Source: Harriotta raleighana
Taxonomy: Eukaryota
Reading direction: 5' to 3'
Length of the DNA: 64,000 nucleotides
Assembly: GCA_050575255.1 (NCBI GenBank)
Contig: JBNZDD010013656.1
Coordinates: forward strand, 2,043,485-2,107,484
This document shows positions 51,055 through 64,000 of this stretch, in pieces. Both the position numbers and the translations under genes were made by a program. Below the pieces are notes generated by a model, which made no database searches, was not told where the DNA came from, and saw nothing but the letters and a program-made list of their open reading frames with translations. Within the stretch, counting starts at the first letter, position 1; every line of letters starts with the position of its first letter.

Positions 51055-51299
51055 CTAACTATTACTTTTCAGTTTAGTGAGGACTTTCTTTTCTTTGACT
51101 CGTCTATTTTGAAACCAAATAGTGACTTGTCTCTCAGAGAGATTTGTTGACGCAGATATCCTCCTTCGTTTGTCTTTGGTAATGAACTTATTGGTAGCAT
51201 ATTCCCTCTCAAGTTCTTTCAACTGCACTTTTGTATAGGGGACTCTTTTCTTTCTCCCACGCCGAAAAGAGCTCGCATCTGAAGGGTGCGAAACGACGT
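51055..51299 (-). CDS. HOXA13: HoxA13 exon 2 (homeodomain; absent from the supplied ORF track)
   Basis: Manual translation after acceptor TTGCAG|AC: [81 protein letters not shown]. 245 nt; joined CDS 296 aa. Confidence 0.96.
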
Positions 51300-51770: not shown

Positions 51771-52416
51771 CTGGCAAAGTGGATTTCCAGAGGTGGGGAG
51801 CCTGCGGTTGCTCTTTTGAACAGCAGACTTGACTGTTCCACCCGTTAGTGATTGCCCAGGGCTGGTAGCTTTCCATGGGGAGTAATGGTTCGTGTCTCGG
51901 TTCTCCCGGGGCGCTGATGGTGGGGACCACAGGTACGTCCAAATAGCTGGGCATTGGTTGGTACGGCCCCGCATAGCCCTGGTAAAAAGCGAACTCCTTG
52001 GCTCTGGACGTGAATTCCTCGCCGGCAGACGTGTCCATGTACTTGTCGGGGGGATACCCAGCCAGGGTGGGGGGCTGAGTGCAAGACTTGATGCTGCTGT
52101 GGTGGCTCATTCTGCAAGGGTAGTAACTGCTCCCAAAGTATCCATAGGGAAGAGAAGCGCTGGACGAAGTTTGAGCGGGACAAGGGCTGCACTGTTTGAC
52201 AGGTTCAGCGGCGCCAGAGGCAGGCAATTCACCGGAGGAGTAGGCAGAGCTGGGGGCGAGGGATGCCGGATGGGCCATCAAATTCCTACACTGGTTCGCT
52301 GTGAAATTCCCTCCTGAAAATCCATCCATGTTTTTATTAATTTCATCCAAGCCGTTGTCGTATACGAACATCACCGTGTCGATCCAGCGGGGATGAAGTA
52401 TCACTGACGCTGTCAT
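51771..52416 (-). CDS. HOXA13: HoxA13 exon 1
   Basis: [21 protein letters not shown]...[13 protein letters not shown]...[12 protein letters not shown]...YLDVPVV...LWKSTLP. Donor G|GTAGGC; 646 nt. Confidence 0.96.
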
Positions 52417-52699
52417 ATCACGTCCAACATTGAGACTAGTGGCCGTTTTAAAAGCCCCAAGACTGAAAAGAGACACTGCATCTCCCCGACTTACCAACGT
52501 TGACGCGCCAGCGTCGCTGAAAAGCCTCCTTTCATTGGCTGTGGGGAAACCACGGGATATGCAGAGTGGATGATAAACATCTGAAGAATAAAAGGTAGAT
52601 ACTCCATTAGTCAAATTGAGCAACATTTGAAGGATTTACGTAAACCAGCGATCCGAATAAAACCGTGGATTGATTAAAATAACAAAATGCCAACAGTGG

Positions 52700-52732
<33 letters not shown>

Positions 52733-54606
52733 AGGACAGCTAAATGTGGACTTCGCAAAGGTGGGTATGTGAGCAATGATGCAAAACCTGATAGCTGCAA
52801 ACAGAATTGTGTGCGTGTATGTACAGAAGTATATCATTACGCTTCTGTTAACTATCTTCTTCGAATTGACTGATTCAAAAACGTTTTGAGCTATACAATA
52901 TGCAGTAATAGAAAATGTGTGTTGTGATCGTGGTCATTTGTGTATTCGACACTGGGACAAGTGTTTTCTTTTTTAAAAAATTATGATATTTGTATCCGTG
53001 TGTGATTTTCAGAGTCACCCTCACAGTCCATCTTAATTTCCCTTTTCACAAACATCGTCTCTTTTTCGAAGCGATTGTCGATTAAGCAAAAACTCGACAC
53101 AATTGCGAAGAGCCGAGCTTCATCGGCCAAGTTTAATAACAAAGCAAGAAAAAGGGGACAACAATGTTTTATGACACAAATGAAACATCTTTGTGGTCTG
53201 TGTATTGCTTGAAGGTACAACTGGCAGAACCAAATAATAAAGTAGTAAGAATTGTCCTATATTATATTGTCACGAAAGCCACATTTGGGAACGTATAATT
53301 CGAGATAAAACGCCTCATTTTTTTTGTTTTGAACATTGCTAAGAGTAAATAGATAAACAGTTGTCGCAGTGAAATCATTCTATCAATTCATGCCATTTCT
53401 ATGCTGAAATCAGTATGCATTTCAAACCCATTGAGCGAATATAAATGCTGGTGTGTTCTAATGTTGTCGAAAATGCAGTTGCTCAAATCAAAAGACAAAG
53501 AGACGTACATAATATTTGTTTACTCTTCCCCAGGCGCGATATTCAATATTAAATAAATGCCTCTAGCACATCCCGCTGATGCAGTGAATTCGTATACCGT
53601 TGTAAAATGTAGATTATTTCAGATTCCTCTGATTCACTGTGTATCATTGCGTGTGTTTCCTGAGTACATAACACGCATAAATACTGGAAAGTATGGATAC
53701 AATGCGAAAATCTGACTCAATGTTAAATGGATTAAAAGTCCAGCTGTTACTTATTGTATAATATATGGCATACTGTTAAATGTGTCAAAAATACGTCAAA
53801 TATCAACAATTTCTTAACTCCATTTCAGTTAACATGTTGTGATTTGGTGGAAAGTAAGAGTAAAGCTATTTCAGCCATGCGGGGCATTGAAATCTGGTTG
53901 TTTGTGCTTTGCGTTTAGATGTGGTGNGGGGCATTGAAATCTGGTTGTTTGTGCTTCGCGTTTAGATGTGGTGTCTTGGGTCCTGCGAGCAAAAAATGTA
54001 CATGTCGCATGAGCGCGACGCTGACAATGTTCACTTAACATGAAAAAAAATCTACCAGGAGTTGTTTCATCTTCTGACAAAAACAAAGCTTGAATTTGCC
54101 ATCATCATTGACCTGGTTTCGATGACTTGAAAGCAGGTTTATGTCTAAAGGGAGCCTCTATAGAGTAGTTCAAGTACATGTTTGTTTGTCCCATTCTCCT
54201 AGCACAAACCATGAATCCTTCAGGGATCTAGCTATTTGGATAGTGACTTTCTTCACTGTTGCTATCCCACTGCATCAAATCACTACACGTTCTCTCTTTT
54301 TGTATTTCTCCGGTGTGTTGCAGCCCGTAATTAATCCCTTGACGTTAATCTTTCCTTTCTACATACATGTCGCGTGTTATTCCAATACAGGCGCCCGTAT
54401 GATCGTTTGCAATCTTCTTATCTGCAAATCTCTTGAGGGAAGCTGTCCCTGTTTGCAGCTGGGAGGTGTGGTGGCTGCAAACATTCTTTCGCTCCTTACG
54501 CTGACAGCCTTTATTTAAAGAGAGACGCTATAATTCGAATTACCCTGGATGTAAAATTTCTCCGTTGACAACCACGCCATAAAAATAGCGAGAGAACGAG
54601 TGAGAT

Positions 54607-54622
54607 ACACACACACACACAC

Positions 54623-54656
<34 letters not shown>
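54607..54656. repeat. Compound (CA)n(GA)n microsatellite
   Basis: Direct inspection. Confidence 0.9.
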
Positions 54657-57600
54657 CAATCCTTTCCCCCTAGCGTATCTGGAAATGCATTCTTCTACCG
54701 GAACCGGCTTGGAGGTGTTGGTGGTGGATTTTCATACATTTGCACTTGTAATGATTGCAATCGTTAGAATAATAATATTTCTAATGAGATCATTTCAAAG
54801 CAAACGAACAACGCGGGGTCAGAAATACATAAAGGGGCGAAAGGAGTCAGACCGTGCGAGAGAAACCTAATACATTTAAATGTTAATATTTCGGATTCCT
54901 GAGCCAACTAATACGATTGGAAATGCTGTAATGTACACAGCAGTAACCAGGATCCGGTGAGAGAGAGAGAGAGAGAGAGTGGGGACTCCTATGCTCTTAT
55001 GTTTCTCACTATCTCTCCGGTAATTGTCTTCTAGTTACCAATAGGTCGAAACTCTTGGCTTTGGGTTTAGTCGGTGTCTCTGGGCTCTCGAAAAATAAGA
55101 TTTATCAGAATGCGCTTTTTTCGTGCGGTGAATGTCTCACTGGGAACATTTCCGCCTATTTTTGCGCTTTACTTGTGAATAAAGTGACAATCATAATGTG
55201 AACGGTAGGATGTAATGGCGGGGACTTGCTGCTGCTCAGGTTTTCGTTGTTGAAATATCCAGCCAACCGAGCGAATAGGGAATCTCATCTTCCTAGTTGT
55301 TCGGATTATATTTGTGAAAAAAAACATTTTCTTTTTTTTAAAAAAAAAACAACGTACAGCTGTAGAACACGCGGCCTTCAGTTATTCTTTCTGGACTGAA
55401 AGAGTGTCGCCCCTTCCCCCATCCCTCCCTCCCCCCCACCCCCACCCCCCACCACCCCTCATATATAACTTAAATTTGAACAGAAATGTGTCAGCCTGCT
55501 CCAATTCTCAGTGCAATCTCCCGAAGCCTCGCTTTGCAGAAGTCTGGTTACTTTGGATGATGTACATCCTCATCAGAGTTTTGCACTTGATGGAAAGGGC
55601 CATATTCAGCTACAAGATGGCAGGAGCCAAATGGGCAGCTCTTTTACATACGAGTTAGACACGGGCAAAGGCCAAGGTCAAGTTGAAAGTTGCAGTCTAG
55701 CCAATCTGAGGGCTGTCATTCAGCCGATGATGACCCTGTCTGAATTCTTATAAAGGGCAAGTCGTGAGAATTGGCTTCTTTGTTCCCATTTTGTTTGCTT
55801 GCTTTTGTCTTCCACTCGGAAGCATCCCAAAGGGAAGAAAAAAAAGCCCCCCCCCCCTCTCCCCCCCACCCCTTCCCACCCCACCCCAACCCCTGACCAT
55901 ACCGTCTCTCTTTCCAGGTTTCAGCATGGTTGGCGAAAGGATGTGAAATGAATGCAGTCGCCAAATTATGCGGGGTCGCATCCGGTTTAAACGCTCTGTT
56001 TACCAAAGCTCTTGTTTTGAACTTGCTGTTTATCCTAGGGATAGCTCTGTGTTGCTTCAAAAGGTAGGCAACTTCTGTGCAACGCAATGTGATTCCTGAC
56101 GAGCCATTCACCCGTGTATTAGGCATCCAATGCTTGTGTCAGCTGTTATTTAACATAAAGATTGCAAACTCTTCTTCGGATACTGCATGCAAGTGTTTTA
56201 CATTGTCTCATGAGGCGGTAAATAAACGACTACTGTACAGACTGCAGAGAAAAGCGCTCCCCAAGAATCTCTGGATCCAACTGTTTTGCAACTGAATTGA
56301 AACTGAATTGAAGTCGAGTTTTCGAGATGCAGTACAAACTAAGGCACGCACATTTCATGCTGTTCAAAATAAAACATCTGCCGATAAGATGAAGAGGGAA
56401 TNACTGAGGCACGCACATTTCATGCTGTTCAAAATAAAACGTCTGCCGATAAGATGAAGAGGGAAACTATTTAGGCAATTATCGGAATATTAATTATTCC
56501 TAGCCCGAGAACATACATGCGTGTTGTGTGTGTTGTCTCCTTGATATGTTGGCCCACACATCAGTATCAGCTAAAGAGGTTCCGGTATTGCGTTTCGTGT
56601 GCTTTATTGGAAGGATTGAAGAGTTAATCATCTACACACACTTTTGAGATCAGGGATTTATTTTGTCAATTCTCACCAAATGGAAAGATCTGTGTCGACC
56701 TCGAAGTTTGTGCATTTTTTATTTCCCTAATTCTTCTGTCGAATTGAAACNCTTGAGGGCCAATATGTCTGAAACATATTCCAACAGAAATGTGTGTTAC
56801 CTTGTACCCNCCCCCCCCCCCCCCCCCCCCCCCCCCGCCCCCTGTGTGCACCCAATCCAGTTCAACGTCTCAAAATAGATGAGGCTTCATGATGCTTGAG
56901 GGCCAATATGTCTGAAACATATTCCAACAGAAATGTGTGTTACCTTGTACCCAAGCGTACGCCAACGGGCTAAAACGTGTAGATGTGGTTTGTATATTTG
57001 AAGCAATCACTTTAGTAGCAACAAAACATTATATTTTACATGCACTTATGTACGCTCCAATAATTCGTTTGTATATAGCGCGGATCGCTATTCAGTTGCA
57101 ATCTTAAATCATGATACAACATGAGTCTAAAGGCGATTCCCAATTATTATTGTTAATGTGTTATTCTGACTATTTCAGATTACACAATTGTTATTGTGCA
57201 TCAATGGTTTCATGTTGCACTTGCTCACGAAATCTCAGACAAATTCAATGTATTATTCTCTGGTGTGAGTCCAAGAAACCACTGTAACAGAAATACTCAC
57301 GACTGCAGAAATGTACCTCAACTGTGAACCAGAATATTTATTTGGGGGTGTTCCTGCGATCGTTTCCATCATCAACCAGTCGATTCTTCAACAAATATTT
57401 ACGAAAATATAAGTCAAACGTAATGACAATTCCACCAAAACCAAACACATTACTATAAAATGCAACCTTTCTCTCCTGACTTTCTGATTTTCTGTCGCTC
57501 AACTCATATGAAAAAAAAACCCACTTCATTTATATTGTAACACAACATGTGTCCGGATTCACACTTGTTATGGATGATTTCAAAATTCTAGTTTTATGAG

Positions 57601-58926
57601 ACGCGAATCAGGATTTGAACGAAAATAAAAAAGTGGCTATTTTTCTTGTGTTTCTCTTTTATGTTAACATTAGTTATTTTCCCCAGTGTTTCTAGAATTT
57701 ATCCGAATAGATCCGAGATGTAACCTGATGGATTGTTGAGCATATCGTTATCTTAGTAATATTTTTCTTTAATATTTCTTATGGATTTATTTAGGATATG
57801 TATCCAGGCGACTAGAGATAAAACATCCATGAACTAACTTGTATTCAATGTTGTACCCTCAAACATTTGGGGATACGGTCCATAAACGCGTCACATTTGT
57901 ATTCACAAAATCGCAATGAAAGGGTATAAATGATAAGGAGTTTTGACACAATTGTTCTCGGTATATATTTTATTCCTAATACATTTTGGACAGATTTCAA
58001 CAACGGTGAATACTGACTCGTGATCTCTGCTATGTCGAATCACCGTAGATAAACATACGAGATAATTATATATATTACCTTCACTACCATGTTTGTTATG
58101 AAAAATCTAGTCGAATTAACCTTGTAAAGCTAGCTTTCATGTATAATTAAATAATTACAATCAACACCACAGAAGTTCCGAAAATAGTGAAAATGTATGT
58201 TTTACTAATATTCCGTGGATCCCGCCTTGTATGTATCATTCACCTACACACATAGGTTGGAAATTGGTTAAAACTGGATACAATTTGAACATGTTCACAC
58301 CAGTCCACGTTTTGTCATGTAACACATTATTTATTTCCTTATATCGAATGAGTATGGAATATCAAGAACAGCACTTACATTAGAATATAGAATAGGATTG
58401 TCGATACACATCTACATTGTCCTTTAGGAGGTTTTTAAAAACTCACCTGATTATAAACAATAAATGTGCATATACACATATAAACTGCAAGATATGATAA
58501 AATAATAGTGCACGAGATTTACATAAATTGCAATTTACCTGTACAGTTAGCTGACTTTTCATAACATTGAATATCTGAACACACGCAGTGGGAGGCGGTA
58601 ATAAAATAGAGAACTGTAATGTTTAATTTAGAGATTATTCCAAAAGCAAAGCTCGGAACGGTTTTTGATATCAAGTTGGATTTTCAATCCACATAAACAG
58701 TGTCAACAATGTCCATTGTAATCAGATTCATTTGGTAAATTAAATAGTTTTGACAAGTTGGTGAATGGGATTACATAAACGCTTTTAATAACATAGGATG
58801 AGTTAAAATCCTGCTTAAAATTAAAAGCAACGTTGTATATCCGATTCCACCTTCAGGCATGTTGTGATATTATTTACATTAATGTAATTAATTGTGTGGT
58901 TTCTCTCTCACTGTTACGCATCCAAA

Positions 58927-58999
58927 CTAAATCTTTAGTTCAGATTGCTGGCTCTGAATCAACCTTTTATCCATCCTCATGGTAAAACCACATCATCGC
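58927..58999 (-). pseudogene. HoxA14 pseudogene exon 3 (helix 3 remnant)
   Basis: After a 124-nt intron and acceptor CCTTCACAG|: AMMWFYHE [frameshift] MDKRLIQSQQSELKI*, versus VKIWFQNQRQKEKKLL. WF is at the correct offset from the splice site. Confidence 0.75.
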
Positions 59000-59123
59000 C
59001 TGTGAAGGATAAGAGTTTGGTTTCAAAAGAAAATCACCAAAACTTCAGGGAAAGAGTATAATGTGTTTTGAGTAGTGACGCTCACCGGTGCAGTTATTAT
59101 TCGTGAAACTCTTTTCTCTTTAC

Positions 59124-59278
59124 CTGCCACTGTGGTAGTCCACATTTTGCGATAATATGTGATTGTATTTCACACACCAGAAACCGACCCTGTCTCCAGC
59201 GCTGCAAATTGGTGTTTGCGATAAGTGATTACTTTCTTAAGCTACTGAACTTTTGGGTGGGCAGAACCCGGGGGGCGA
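59124..59278 (-). pseudogene. HoxA14 pseudogene exon 2 (5' part of split homeobox)
   Basis: Bounded by TTTTCAG| and CAG|GTAAAG. Reads PKVQ*LKKVITYRKHQFAALETG [frameshift] RFLVCEIQSHIIAKCGLPQWQ, versus remembered Hox14 consensus RQRKKRIPYSKQQIAELEKAFEKNRFLTPEIRLNISFKLGLTERQ. The donor follows the Q before VKIWF, the Hox14-type intron position. Confidence 0.85.
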
Positions 59279-61439
59279 CTGAAAACTCTGAGTTGTTAAC
59301 GAATCAATAGTCCAGATTGGATTGAACGATGTATCCTTTGTTAGTAGTAATGATGCCCACCTCTAATTATATCTAATGGAAATGCTCATACTGTACTTTA
59401 AAATAAAACTTATAAACCTTTATGGATCGTCAGACTCCAACGGCGTTAAATGTGTTCAATAAATGCAACCAAAAACCTCAAATGCGCTTATAAATCCACA
59501 GATGTAAGATCGCTGTTGGGTAAATTGGAGTTTCACTTGGAGTTGCAGCAGTTGCATTAAACCATGGTTAAAACGAGAAACTTTTATATTTTTAATGCGA
59601 CATTCACATCGTTTTTTTTTAAAAAAAACCCGAAACTCCCAAACTCACACATATATTATGCACTTTACGACATATAAGACTTCATATTGAATAGCATAGC
59701 AGGGAAAGTCCTATACAGTGGGATTATGTGAACTCCATGCGTTTGACACCTAAACCCTTTGAAGTCATCTCAAAATATAATTTTAAAAACGACAAGATCG
59801 AAACTTCACTTCCTTGTATGAATGAAAACATTTGTGTTTGTAAGACAGACACATCGATGGTTTCCACAGGAGGTAATTACAGAAATCTAATATGTATCCC
59901 ATTTTAAATACACGTTTCAACAAATATATTTTCCAGTATTCCTTTACATCCAGTACTCTTTGTGATTCCAGGAACTCTGTCTGTTACCAAATAACCACTC
60001 CTATACCAAGTATCCGGCATCATTGAAGAGTGTGTGGTTGGTAAGAAATTGCTTCTATTAGTGTTTATTATACACTGGAGTGAAAATGTAATTTTAGGTA
60101 CAACACCTCAATCGATCTTACTGTTACGGTATTTATTATCGTGTTTTTTTTATTCCAAAAAAAGATTGAAAATGCCGAATACAATAAAGAAATACGTACT
60201 AAATTCCCTCAATGTATTTTCAATTGGGGGACACAACATATGTCCAGCAATGTCGTTTACTTGAACAAAATATCGAATCGGATCTTTATGCTTCCCTTGG
60301 GGAACGCGTTGTGTTTAACCTGTTCAGGAATGCACACTCTTATATGTAGTCGAACCGCCAAAGCAACAAGGGAAACATTATTTGGAAACGAATGTAATTC
60401 GTGGGCATCTGTAGTATTTTGTGTTTTGTTTACGATTCGTTTATGTTCACTTCATGGCGGTCATTATAGAATTCACATCATTGCGACCCAGGACATCTTT
60501 TAACAAGTTGAAAGCCTTTGCTGTCCGACTTCAAATGTCTGAAGGGATTGAAAATAACATCTGTACATCTTCTTCCACAGGCAACCTCGGAAAGTCTTCA
60601 ATGCCCTCTAAGATGTTCTATCTATTAAGGTGCTGGGAAGGGATAATGTCTTATTAACATTGGTTTATCTCCTCTTCCTACAGATTAAAAGAGAAAAATA
60701 AAATTGTCTGAACATAAGAATCATCTGACTCGACCCAGTGAAGTTAACAAAATGTAATAATAAAATGATAGTTTGTCAATATTATTTCGGGCGTTTTGGA
60801 GTAGTTTTTCAGCTCCTTCGGTTGAAGTCTTCCTTTTAGTTATTTTATAAAGCTCAAACCAAAAACTGTCATCGATGCATTAACATCGATGGCAAAGACT
60901 GGCTTGTTCGCTTCGCTCTACGCAGTTTGTCCAATGCCTTAGAGAGTCCTTAATATTCACCTACAGAACACAGTGTCCATGGCATCAGATACGAATCTGT
61001 TACACAACAAAGGTTTACATATATACAAGTGACCTTTACTGTACAATACTGCAAAATGCCTAATACTGTAATGAAACGCGGAAATATGGGATGCTGACTG
61101 GTTTCGAACAATTCGCGTCATATCTCTGAGCCCCTTTCCAAAAGTGTTTTATTTACATAATAAATCTATAATATAATTCTATAATGACCCGTTTTTATCG
61201 AGTTTGTTTCATCCGATCGATGTTGGGTTTTGTTTCAAATTGCTTGTTGGGTCCGTCTTTTAAAACGACAGAATTGTATAACTCTGTATTTCTGTAATAT
61301 ATGAAGCGAAGTTGGTAAATTTCAAAATAGCGAAATTGTCTTCGTATCCGCAAACAAGGCGGTTTAAAATGGCACTTTGTCCCTTTAATGGGCGCCACAG
61401 GGAAAGGTTTGGTAGATCTATGAAATGAGCAATGTTCAA

Positions 61440-62000
61440 TAACTTCTGCGGCTGGAGTGAAGTGAGAAGTAAAACTATCAGAGTGAGGTTTGTGGTCATC
61501 CTTAGTTAGGTCTGTTTCATTCATGTTCCACTGGGTTTGAGCAGCCAGATCAACAGCCTTGAGTTTCCATAGCCTGGGTATTAACATGACTGAGTAGTTC
61601 ACTCCTTGCACTGGTCTGAGGAGGATCTCTGGAGAGTAAAGTGTGACCCACAGCCATTGCTGAAGTTTAGAGCAACCGGTCTCTCCTCTATTCGGAGACA
61701 AACATTTTCGGATTAAAACCGAGGGCGTCATTGTAAAAATGTCCAGAGGGGAAGGATAATCTTTTGCAGGCTGTGAGGAAGAAAACAGTGGAAAAGTACA
61801 TCCCAGATTTCCAGGGAAGATCATTCTTGTACCGTGAATGGCTGAGGCTTTTGTCCTTGCAGTGACACAACTGTTCCACTAGATGCCTGCAGAGTTAGTG
61901 GAAGATATCCAAGATCTTTATTCTTCTCTGGATTCACTGACCTGGCATTCGAAGATGAATGAATGATCTCGGTGCGGTATAGTTTTTTGAGGGGGGAATT
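61440..62000 (-). pseudogene. Probable HoxA14 pseudogene exon 1 remnant (boundaries approximate)
   Basis: Coding-like island with overlapping minus-strand ORFs in all three frames, consistent with frameshifted decay. Fragments LSFPSGHFYN, DQCKE*...YPGYG and AAQTQW recall posterior Hox N-terminal motifs. About 2.2 kb upstream of the exon 2 remnant. Confidence 0.5.
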
Positions 62001-63162
62001 TAAAATAACACAACTGAGCGTGTTAAAAAAAAAAACGTGCGCCGCCCAGCAAACAAATAAAATCCTCTCATGGAAAGAGAACCCAGCCTCCACCTGCCTG
62101 GACAAACTGGTTATTTTATGACAGGACATGTGTTTGCAAAGCAAAGTTAAACCGTACTCAACGCTCGGATTAATCGTTAATCCGGTTGAGTGCCGGTTGA
62201 GCGCCAAGGACATCGAGGCGGTGTTACTTTGCCAGCTCCACCATTACGCTCTGTGATCGAAAGGCGGGAGTGCTCAGACTTTTATAAACCTGTGCACCCA
62301 CGTTACCTTTCGAACAGGATCCTGCGAGTTACATCATCTCGGGGAGGCTGATCTGTGTTGGAACTGAGTACACGAAATATGGTTGGACAAATGGCTGCGG
62401 TCCCGCGAAGTACATGTACATGGGAGATTGGAAATTTATTGGTCATTACATCTGGCAATGCACCTAGATTGTGCTCGAAGTCACTTACGTGGGACTTTAG
62501 AACAAATATTTAGTCTCCAAGCAATAAAGTGCGAACAAATGGAGAGTCCAGTTAAAGGATCGCATGAGCAGTTAGTTAGCTGTTCACTGCCTTTCCTGAA
62601 TTTAAAAAGGTACAGACTTTCTCTATTAGCACAACACAGCTGTATTGAGGTAAATGGCCAATGTTACAGTGAAGGAAGCGTTTATATGGTGAAACTGAGA
62701 TCCTATTATTTTCTGTCCAAACTGGTCATTTTAAATTTTCAGATTTTTTTTTGTTCAATTGCAACCTTGAACCTCAGCTATTTGCATGCAAAGGAACTGC
62801 ATTGCAGGTTCATCCAGACAGTGTGGGCAGCACTGCAGTCGACATCATGAATCACACATTTAAGGCTGCATTTATTTGCGTGAGAGATGTCGTTCCCATT
62901 TTCGAAAAAAAAAATCGGGTGACCGCACTCAAAAGAATACGTCTTACATTTCACCCTGAATCAAATGCAAAGTTTATTTTTGTTCACTGGATTGCAACAC
63001 AGAAAGAATCTCTTGAGTATTTCATTTGATTCAATTCTGCATTCCGCCCCCCCCACCCCTCCCCCACCAGCCCCCCCACTCCCATCCCCACCCCCAGGAT
63101 TGTATTGACTTAGGCAAACAAGTAGATTGATGTGTAAGAGGTTTAATTACCACACAACCACA

Positions 63163-63194
<32 letters not shown>

Positions 63195-64000
63195 AGTGTG
63201 TGTGGCNGTGGCGTTTGGTGGGGGGGGGGGGGGGGGACGGGACGACGACAACTGCAGGAAAACGGCCCTCAACTGCAACATGCTTAATAACAGTTCAGGC
63301 GTGACAATTTAAACCAGCTCATGCCAATTTAAAGCAGGTATGCTGAGCAATAGTTCTTGCAGTAATTTCTTTCTGATCCAGGCAATAGTGCACAGGCGAA
63401 GCGTGTCCGTCCCTTTGTTTTTAATAAAACAGCGACTGATGGACTGCTATCACACCCGCGTACTGACCGACATGGACTTTGCTCCAGAGTGCAAGGGGTG
63501 AACTAACTCAGGGCCAAAAGGCTGGAAAGTCGTTCCAACTACTCCGGTAAGGTGTTTAATCTCCACACGGTGAGTGTTGAATCCAATGTAACGAGGGAGC
63601 ACGTTACCGGGATTGACTCGTTCTCTTTTGTACTGTACTTATCCGAGCACACCAGAGCAAAACAATCCCCACTCCCTAAATTATGACTCTTAATGCATTT
63701 GTGTGGTTTGATAGCACTTGCAAGTAGACACAGGTCTTCCCTTGTGTTCGTGTTGTTTTGAATTTAAATAATTCTGCCCACTTGACCGACGAGATATTTT
63801 CTGATTTTTTCTCTCTCTCTCTGATTGTTTACTTTGAACTATTCGTGTGTGTTTGTGAATTTGCGATTTTTGTCTTTTCGAATCTTGTCTTCTCACACTC
63901 GTAAAATATCGTTCAAGCCACCGGAGAGCGGTTATTCAAACTCGTGGTTGTATCCACATTGCTTTGCACCCCAGGGAGTCAAAAATCTTTTGAGTGGTTG

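Follow-up and report, generated by a model that had tools for sequence, protein, structure and literature searches.

A HoxA14 pseudogene, assigned by cluster position and exon 1 similarity, beyond HoxA13 in the chimaera Harriotta raleighana

Hox14 genes consist of three exons and encode the motif WFQNQR (PMC3509897). Intact HoxA14 genes are described in lungfishes (PMC3038165, PMC7875771) and in caecilians, and HoxA14 pseudogenes in turtles and some crocodilians (PMC11600591). Cartilaginous fishes are reported to carry HoxD14 together with pseudogenes of other group-14 genes (PMC3509897), and pseudogenes of HoxA14 and HoxB14 are reported for the elephant shark (PMC3707753). A HoxA14 relic of the kind described here is already known in cartilaginous fishes, as an earlier note on this DNA had also stated. 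Hoxa14 was judged absent in skate and horn shark, though a conserved element was noted 5' of where it had been, in a study that describes chondrichthyan HoxA clusters as slowly changing and containing few repeats (PMC2746220). Details of HoxA14 lesions are not given in the accessible parts of PMC1845163 and PMC7269910.

The locus presented here lies in a stretch of 64,000 nucleotides of Harriotta raleighana (contig JBNZDD010013656.1, positions 2,043,485 to 2,107,484), which was analysed as a whole and is called the window. It resembles the HoxA14 pseudogene of Callorhinchus milii: both are dead members of group 14, both stand at the 5' end of HoxA, and both species are holocephalans in which HoxD14 has been kept (PMC3707753, PMC3509897). 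The two species differ in that exon 2 of HoxD14 is 95% and not 100% identical, and in that a HoxB14 pseudogene is reported for C. milii, whereas no clear remnant was present here in the 40 kb past HoxB13. With the intact HoxA14 of coelacanth and lungfish (database proteins P0015, P0016 and P0017), the remnant shares its position, an N-terminal motif, three exons and a split homeobox. Unlike them, it contains frameshifts and stops, WFQNQR is reduced to WF, both splice sites of intron 1 are likely lost, and it shows a HoxD14-type N-terminal extension that is missing from the three database HoxA14 proteins. The bowfin hoxd14 pseudogene is likewise a dead Hox14 gene that keeps the junction splitting the homeobox; however, it is a HoxD14 and retains WFQNQR, and its transcription and splicing were reported from RNA-seq, cloning and in situ hybridisation (PMC8423624).

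On the minus strand of the window, intact homeoboxes follow one another in the order HoxA7, A9, A10, A11 and A13, and then comes the remnant on the same strand. The set 7, 9, 10, 11 and 13 is the HoxA pattern. The remnant lies about 6.5 kb past exon 1 of HoxA13, in the group-14 position 5' of Hox13, and its place in the cluster is anchored by one intact neighbour:

51079..51258, minus strand: HoxA13 homeobox

The Rfam search of 52000–64000 gave no match on the remnant. It returned a HOTTIP_2 match between HoxA13 and the remnant, at 55638–55779 on the plus strand, opposite to HoxA13 (56.7 bits, E 4.5e-13, under the gathering score of 80). The Evx1 homeobox was not found in the 30 kb past the end of the window (L005, L006, L016), and Evx1 is presumably located further out.

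This genome contains four Hox clusters. A homeobox split after query residue 46, 9 kb ahead of HoxD13, belongs to HoxD14, which is intact, with 266 amino acids encoded in three exons and with introns that measure 689 and 171 nt. The identity of its exon 2 is 95% with Callorhinchus, 73–87% with sharks and rays and 67–70% with HoxA14 of coelacanth and lungfish. With lungfish HoxA14 as the query, no second intact Hox14 gene was found among the 150 scored of 180 candidates. The noncoding flanks of A14 and D14 share a single 35-nt match (E 0.03). No remnants of HoxB14 or HoxC14 rose clearly over background in the 40 kb past HoxB13 (L007–L010) and the 40 kb past HoxC13 (L011–L014), the best HoxB14-type score past HoxB13 being -3.0 bits; a HoxB14 remnant, as reported for the elephant shark, may be too decayed for the profile used here. 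About 39 kb past HoxB13, a degenerate Evx-like gene was observed (L015, 1690–1818 and 2983–3156, plus strand), pointing away from the HoxB cluster. Its exons are 53% and 44% identical to the Evx2 exons of the genome, WFQNRR has become WYENLC and a TGA stands at the end of the homeobox exon; it is likely a decaying B-cluster copy of Evx.

Beyond HoxA13, a three-exon Hox14 remnant extends over about 61925–58945 on the minus strand, with the following parts:

61825..61925, minus strand: exon 1, 5' part, remnant of the HoxD14-type N-terminal extension, by alignment to HoxD14
61418..61824, minus strand: exon 1, main part, with several frameshifting indels, from the ATG that corresponds to the start annotated for HoxA14 in lungfish and coelacanth
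59124..59292, minus strand: exon 2 remnant, homeodomain residues up to Gln44, by homology
59242..59244, minus strand: TAG stop in exon 2
58945..58999, minus strand: exon 3 remnant, 3' end not definable

Single tblastn pieces of the remnant are weak (E 0.008–0.7 in a 190-kb database), so that plain tblastn does not suffice and frameshift-aware scoring was needed. The exons were therefore scored end to end with a frameshift-aware nucleotide profile built from the three HoxA14 proteins. Exon 2 reached 40.2 bits, whereas 672 background windows gave at most -4.7 and 500 shuffles at most -0.5. Exon 1 scored 19.6 bits with the A14 profile and -42.0 with that of D14, the null maximum being -10.3 (n = 140 background windows). 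Exon 3 alone is weak (15.0 bits, with one of 686 background windows as high), and its start coincides exactly with the AG that lies 124 nt past the donor. The homeobox remnant scored 19.3–41.2 bits against 21 Hox14 proteins, with coelacanth HoxA14 at the top, and -15.8 to 5.9 bits against seven non-14 homeodomains of the same genome (groups 7–13). This homeodomain scoring covered 21 of the 22 group-14 proteins, as one was excluded for its missing anchor motif. The group-14 features found are thus three ordered remnants, a homeobox intron at the conserved position and a best match to group-14 homeodomains. Among the database Hox14 proteins P0001–P0021, automatic names are mostly misleading (Hox-D12-like, Hox-C8-like, hhex-like and others), and five of the 21 are listed under a Hox14 name; no further HoxA14 proteins beyond P0015, P0016 and P0017 were present among 25 candidates.

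The earlier note had read the homeodomain peptides KKVITYRKHQFAALET, RFLVCEIQSHIIAKCGLPQWQ and AMMWF from the minus strand, and all three are found there, as are the lesions it listed: the in-frame TAG at 59244–59242, a deletion of 11 nt adjoining 59187/59186 and a second frameshift, which is a 5-nt deletion in exon 3. Two further lesions of exon 2, both towards its 5' end, had escaped it: an insertion of net 4 nt and a deletion of 6 nt. In exon 3, WF is kept and QNQR is lost, and the 5-nt deletion is followed by a TAA at 58969–58967. With WFYHE in place of WFQNQR, and with the TAG and the 11-nt and 5-nt deletions, the locus is a group-14 pseudogene and no working member of the group; a homeodomain protein cannot be made from it. 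At residues invariant in 18 of 22 Hox14 proteins, 13 of 48 constrained (non-degenerate) homeobox bases have changed, that is 27% (95% interval 17–41%) or about 0.34 substitutions per site.

The assignment within group 14 comes from the first exon. From the ATG at 61824, all eight N-terminal residues are identical to those of Neoceratodus HoxA14, and this match to lungfish argues for an A14 orthologue rather than D14; the local score of exon 1 is 48.9 bits with HoxA14 and 19.5 with HoxD14. In these first eight codons, 16 of 16 constrained bases are kept (P = 0.006 at 27% decay; post hoc). Without its first 28 codons, exon 1 scores -15.6 bits, within the null range (maximum -6.1), and its 3' end near 61418 is therefore weakly placed. 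Upstream of the ATG, 61898–61857 aligns without gaps to HoxD14 residues 10–23 (26 of 42 nt, 18.7 bits), the second best of 361,000 positions for an N-terminal-extension profile made from 9 of 12 suitable proteins. This stretch lies 89 nt from the GN[LF]G motif, compared with 84 nt in HoxD14, and it is out of frame with the remaining exon 1. Counting back nine codons, the ancestral start may have been near 61925, which now reads AAG.

Judged by cluster position and exon 1 similarity, the remnant is a HoxA14 pseudogene. The same identification in the earlier note is borne out by the location distal to A13, the three exons, the split homeobox, the best match to group 14 and the A14-type exon 1, and the frameshift-aware alignment to Hox14 proteins that it had named as a test is significant, exons 1 and 2 being far above their nulls. 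It had described remnants of exons 2 and 3; exon 1, from 61925 or 61824 to about 61418, did not appear there.

The splice positions of the remnant are as follows:

59000..59123, minus strand: intron 2, splitting the homeobox, phase 0, 124 nt, GT...AG intact
61416..61417, minus strand: AT where the intron-1 donor likely stood, from end-to-end alignment in both of two gap settings, a weaker placement
59293..59294, minus strand: AA where the intron-1 acceptor likely stood, by homology

Intron 2 has a CAG|GTAA donor and a pyrimidine tract with a CAG|G acceptor. Its junction follows the Gln codon that also precedes the 171-nt intron in the intact HoxD14, and all 11 bases of its extended motifs agree with HoxD14. 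Both intron-1 placements presuppose the intron-1 position of HoxD14 (phase 1), and homology placed the start of exon 2 at 59292 under two of the three gap settings used and at 59288 under the remaining one. Two further AGs lie closely downstream of the acceptor position, at 59289–59288 and 59280–59279. The latter was rejected as the ancestral acceptor: it ends a CAG codon inside QSFQSP, which is aligned to lungfish LSFHSP. The splice sites had earlier been called intact, which holds for the GT and AG of intron 2; the acceptor of exon 2 is likely AA, the AG that had been taken for it is exonic, and the intron-1 donor is likely AT. Two of four ancestral splice dinucleotides survive. In total, six of eight splice bases are kept (P = 0.63 at 27% decay), as are 19 of 22 bases of the extended motifs (P = 0.12); for intron 2 alone the values are P = 0.28 for its four bases and P = 0.03 for eleven (11/11, post hoc). 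At these values of P, the splice signals do not demonstrate selection. Nor do the surviving dinucleotides and bases lend support to the proposal that the signals may point to a spliced non-coding RNA.

Exon 1 and its upstream region also carry the following features:

61195..61824, minus strand: 209-codon ORF, which begins at the conserved exon-1 ATG, spans exon 1, extends into intron 1 for 73 codons and ends with the TAA at 61197–61195
61821..62213, minus strand: 130-codon upstream ORF, ending in a TGA that overlaps the ATG at 61824 and holding the N-terminal-extension remnant in frame
62280..62286, minus strand: TATA-like TATAAAA, the sole TATAWAW within 1 kb upstream of 61824

The 209-codon ORF, missed in the earlier note, contains none of the 23 stop triplets of that strand, the other two frames holding 9 and 14, which gives P = (2/3)^23 = 9e-5 (about 1e-4, post hoc). 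In simulations at 27% decay, 0 of 6000 sequences reached 209 codons and 0.2–0.8% kept the first 135 codons (the exon part) open; at 10% decay, 0.03–0.1% reached 209 codons. Likewise, none of 5653 background ATGs reached this length, the longest frame having 175 codons. It is the tenth longest ATG frame in 190.5 kb, and the nine longer ones belong, by position, to intact genes, as first exons or as exons of Evx2. However, three +1 shifts are needed before its middle part aligns to HoxA14, and its codon score is -0.14, with no frame preference; nine intact first exons score +0.11 to +0.31, and 172 non-coding windows -0.26 +/- 0.12. An AATAAA stands at 61153–61148, 42 nt past the stop, and this hexamer is frequent in the AT-rich intron 1 (four copies, plus two of ATTAAA). 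No homologues of the ORF scored among 43 candidates, no Pfam family was found, a look-up of the exact sequence gave no match, and a search of 1.84 billion representatives gave two matches, both to unrelated tandem-repeat proteins; for a vertebrate ORF that is not annotated, such searches carry little weight. The 130-codon upstream ORF has P = 0.005 by stop-triplet count (post hoc), and a single indel within 61856–61824 would fuse it with the 209-codon frame. Five ATGs occur within 500 nt upstream of 61824, and the CpG count in 62001–64000 is 69. All observations on the 209-codon ORF are post hoc and concern one genome.

A chance match or a transposon fragment is an explanation to which we give practically no credence. 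The weakness of single tblastn pieces and of exon 3, which alone is near background, would fit it, but three ordered exon matches lie on the cluster strand, with exons 1 and 2 far over their nulls, and transposon origin was rejected as each of the two stretches tested has one match in the genome (the search skips common words). We consider it likely that the broken HoxA14 decays inertly in place, its intron-2 signals and exon-1 frame having lasted through chance together with residual coding bias. Once the A and D copies of Hox14 had arisen, HoxD14 would have been kept and the function of HoxA14 lost long ago, at the distance of about 0.34 substitutions per site; the slow change of chondrichthyan Hox clusters and their exclusion of repeats are the likely reason that the remnant is still readable. 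The survival of two of four splice dinucleotides is what neutral decay predicts. Against inert decay count the rare 209-codon frame, the 16 of 16 N-terminal bases, the 11 of 11 bases of intron 2 and the 130-codon upstream ORF, all post hoc, as well as the bowfin precedent of a dead Hox14 gene reported to be still transcribed and spliced.

That precedent (PMC8423624), with transcription in specific domains, already exists for a non-coding RNA, and it is conceivable, if rather unlikely, that the locus is dead as a protein gene and would still be transcribed from its old promoter in posterior tissues, similarly to bowfin hoxd14. Splicing would then remove intron 2, and intron 1 would either stay in the transcript or be removed with the help of replacement sites, for which donor-like sites at 61033 or 60960 and the AGs at 59288 or 59279 are candidates. 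The match of the intron-2 motifs to HoxD14 is consistent with this, as are the TATA-like box at 62286, the CpG content of 62001–64000 and the fact that both changes from lungfish just past the lost acceptor (L to Q and H to Q) leave an AG. On the other hand, both intron-1 dinucleotides are apparently mutated, overall retention is not above neutral, no donor-like site of at least 7/9 occurs within exon 1 or the 209-codon ORF, and gar hoxd14 is described as a pseudogene with no transcription evidence (PMC8423624). No paper dedicated to the expression of a chondrichthyan HoxA14 pseudogene was found in the literature searched, most subscription journals being outside its reach. It is far less probable still that exon 1 persisted, or was put to new use, as a short gene of one exon, in which the 209-codon frame would be translated, with no homeodomain, from a transcript ending at the AATAAA at 61153. 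The rank of the frame, its low neutral probability, the fully conserved N-terminus and the polyA hexamer speak for such a gene, but the central part of the ORF has left the ancestral protein frame through three or more frameshifts, its codon use is not coding-like, five ATGs precede it within 500 nt, no related protein was found and AATAAA is common in this intron. If true, a HoxA14 without its homeobox but with its first exon would have given rise to a new single-exon gene, recycled from a Hox gene; the chimaera would make a protein of 209 residues, its frame continuing past the dead donor into intron 1 and its transcript being polyadenylated shortly beyond, with the 130-codon upstream frame overlapping its start.

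With inert decay as the preferred reading, the remnant would be of greater import only if the locus were expressed or the exon-1 frame conserved across chimaeras. The HoxD14-type extension in the remnant suggests that the ancestral HoxA14 had the longer N-terminus of HoxD14, and the annotations of coelacanth and lungfish HoxA14, which are without it in the three database proteins, may begin at an internal Met. Moreover, the list of lesions can be compared with those of the shark, skate and elephant-shark copies, which bears on whether there was one ancient loss or several, and in this way the HoxA14 relic helps to date and map the loss of Hox14 genes.
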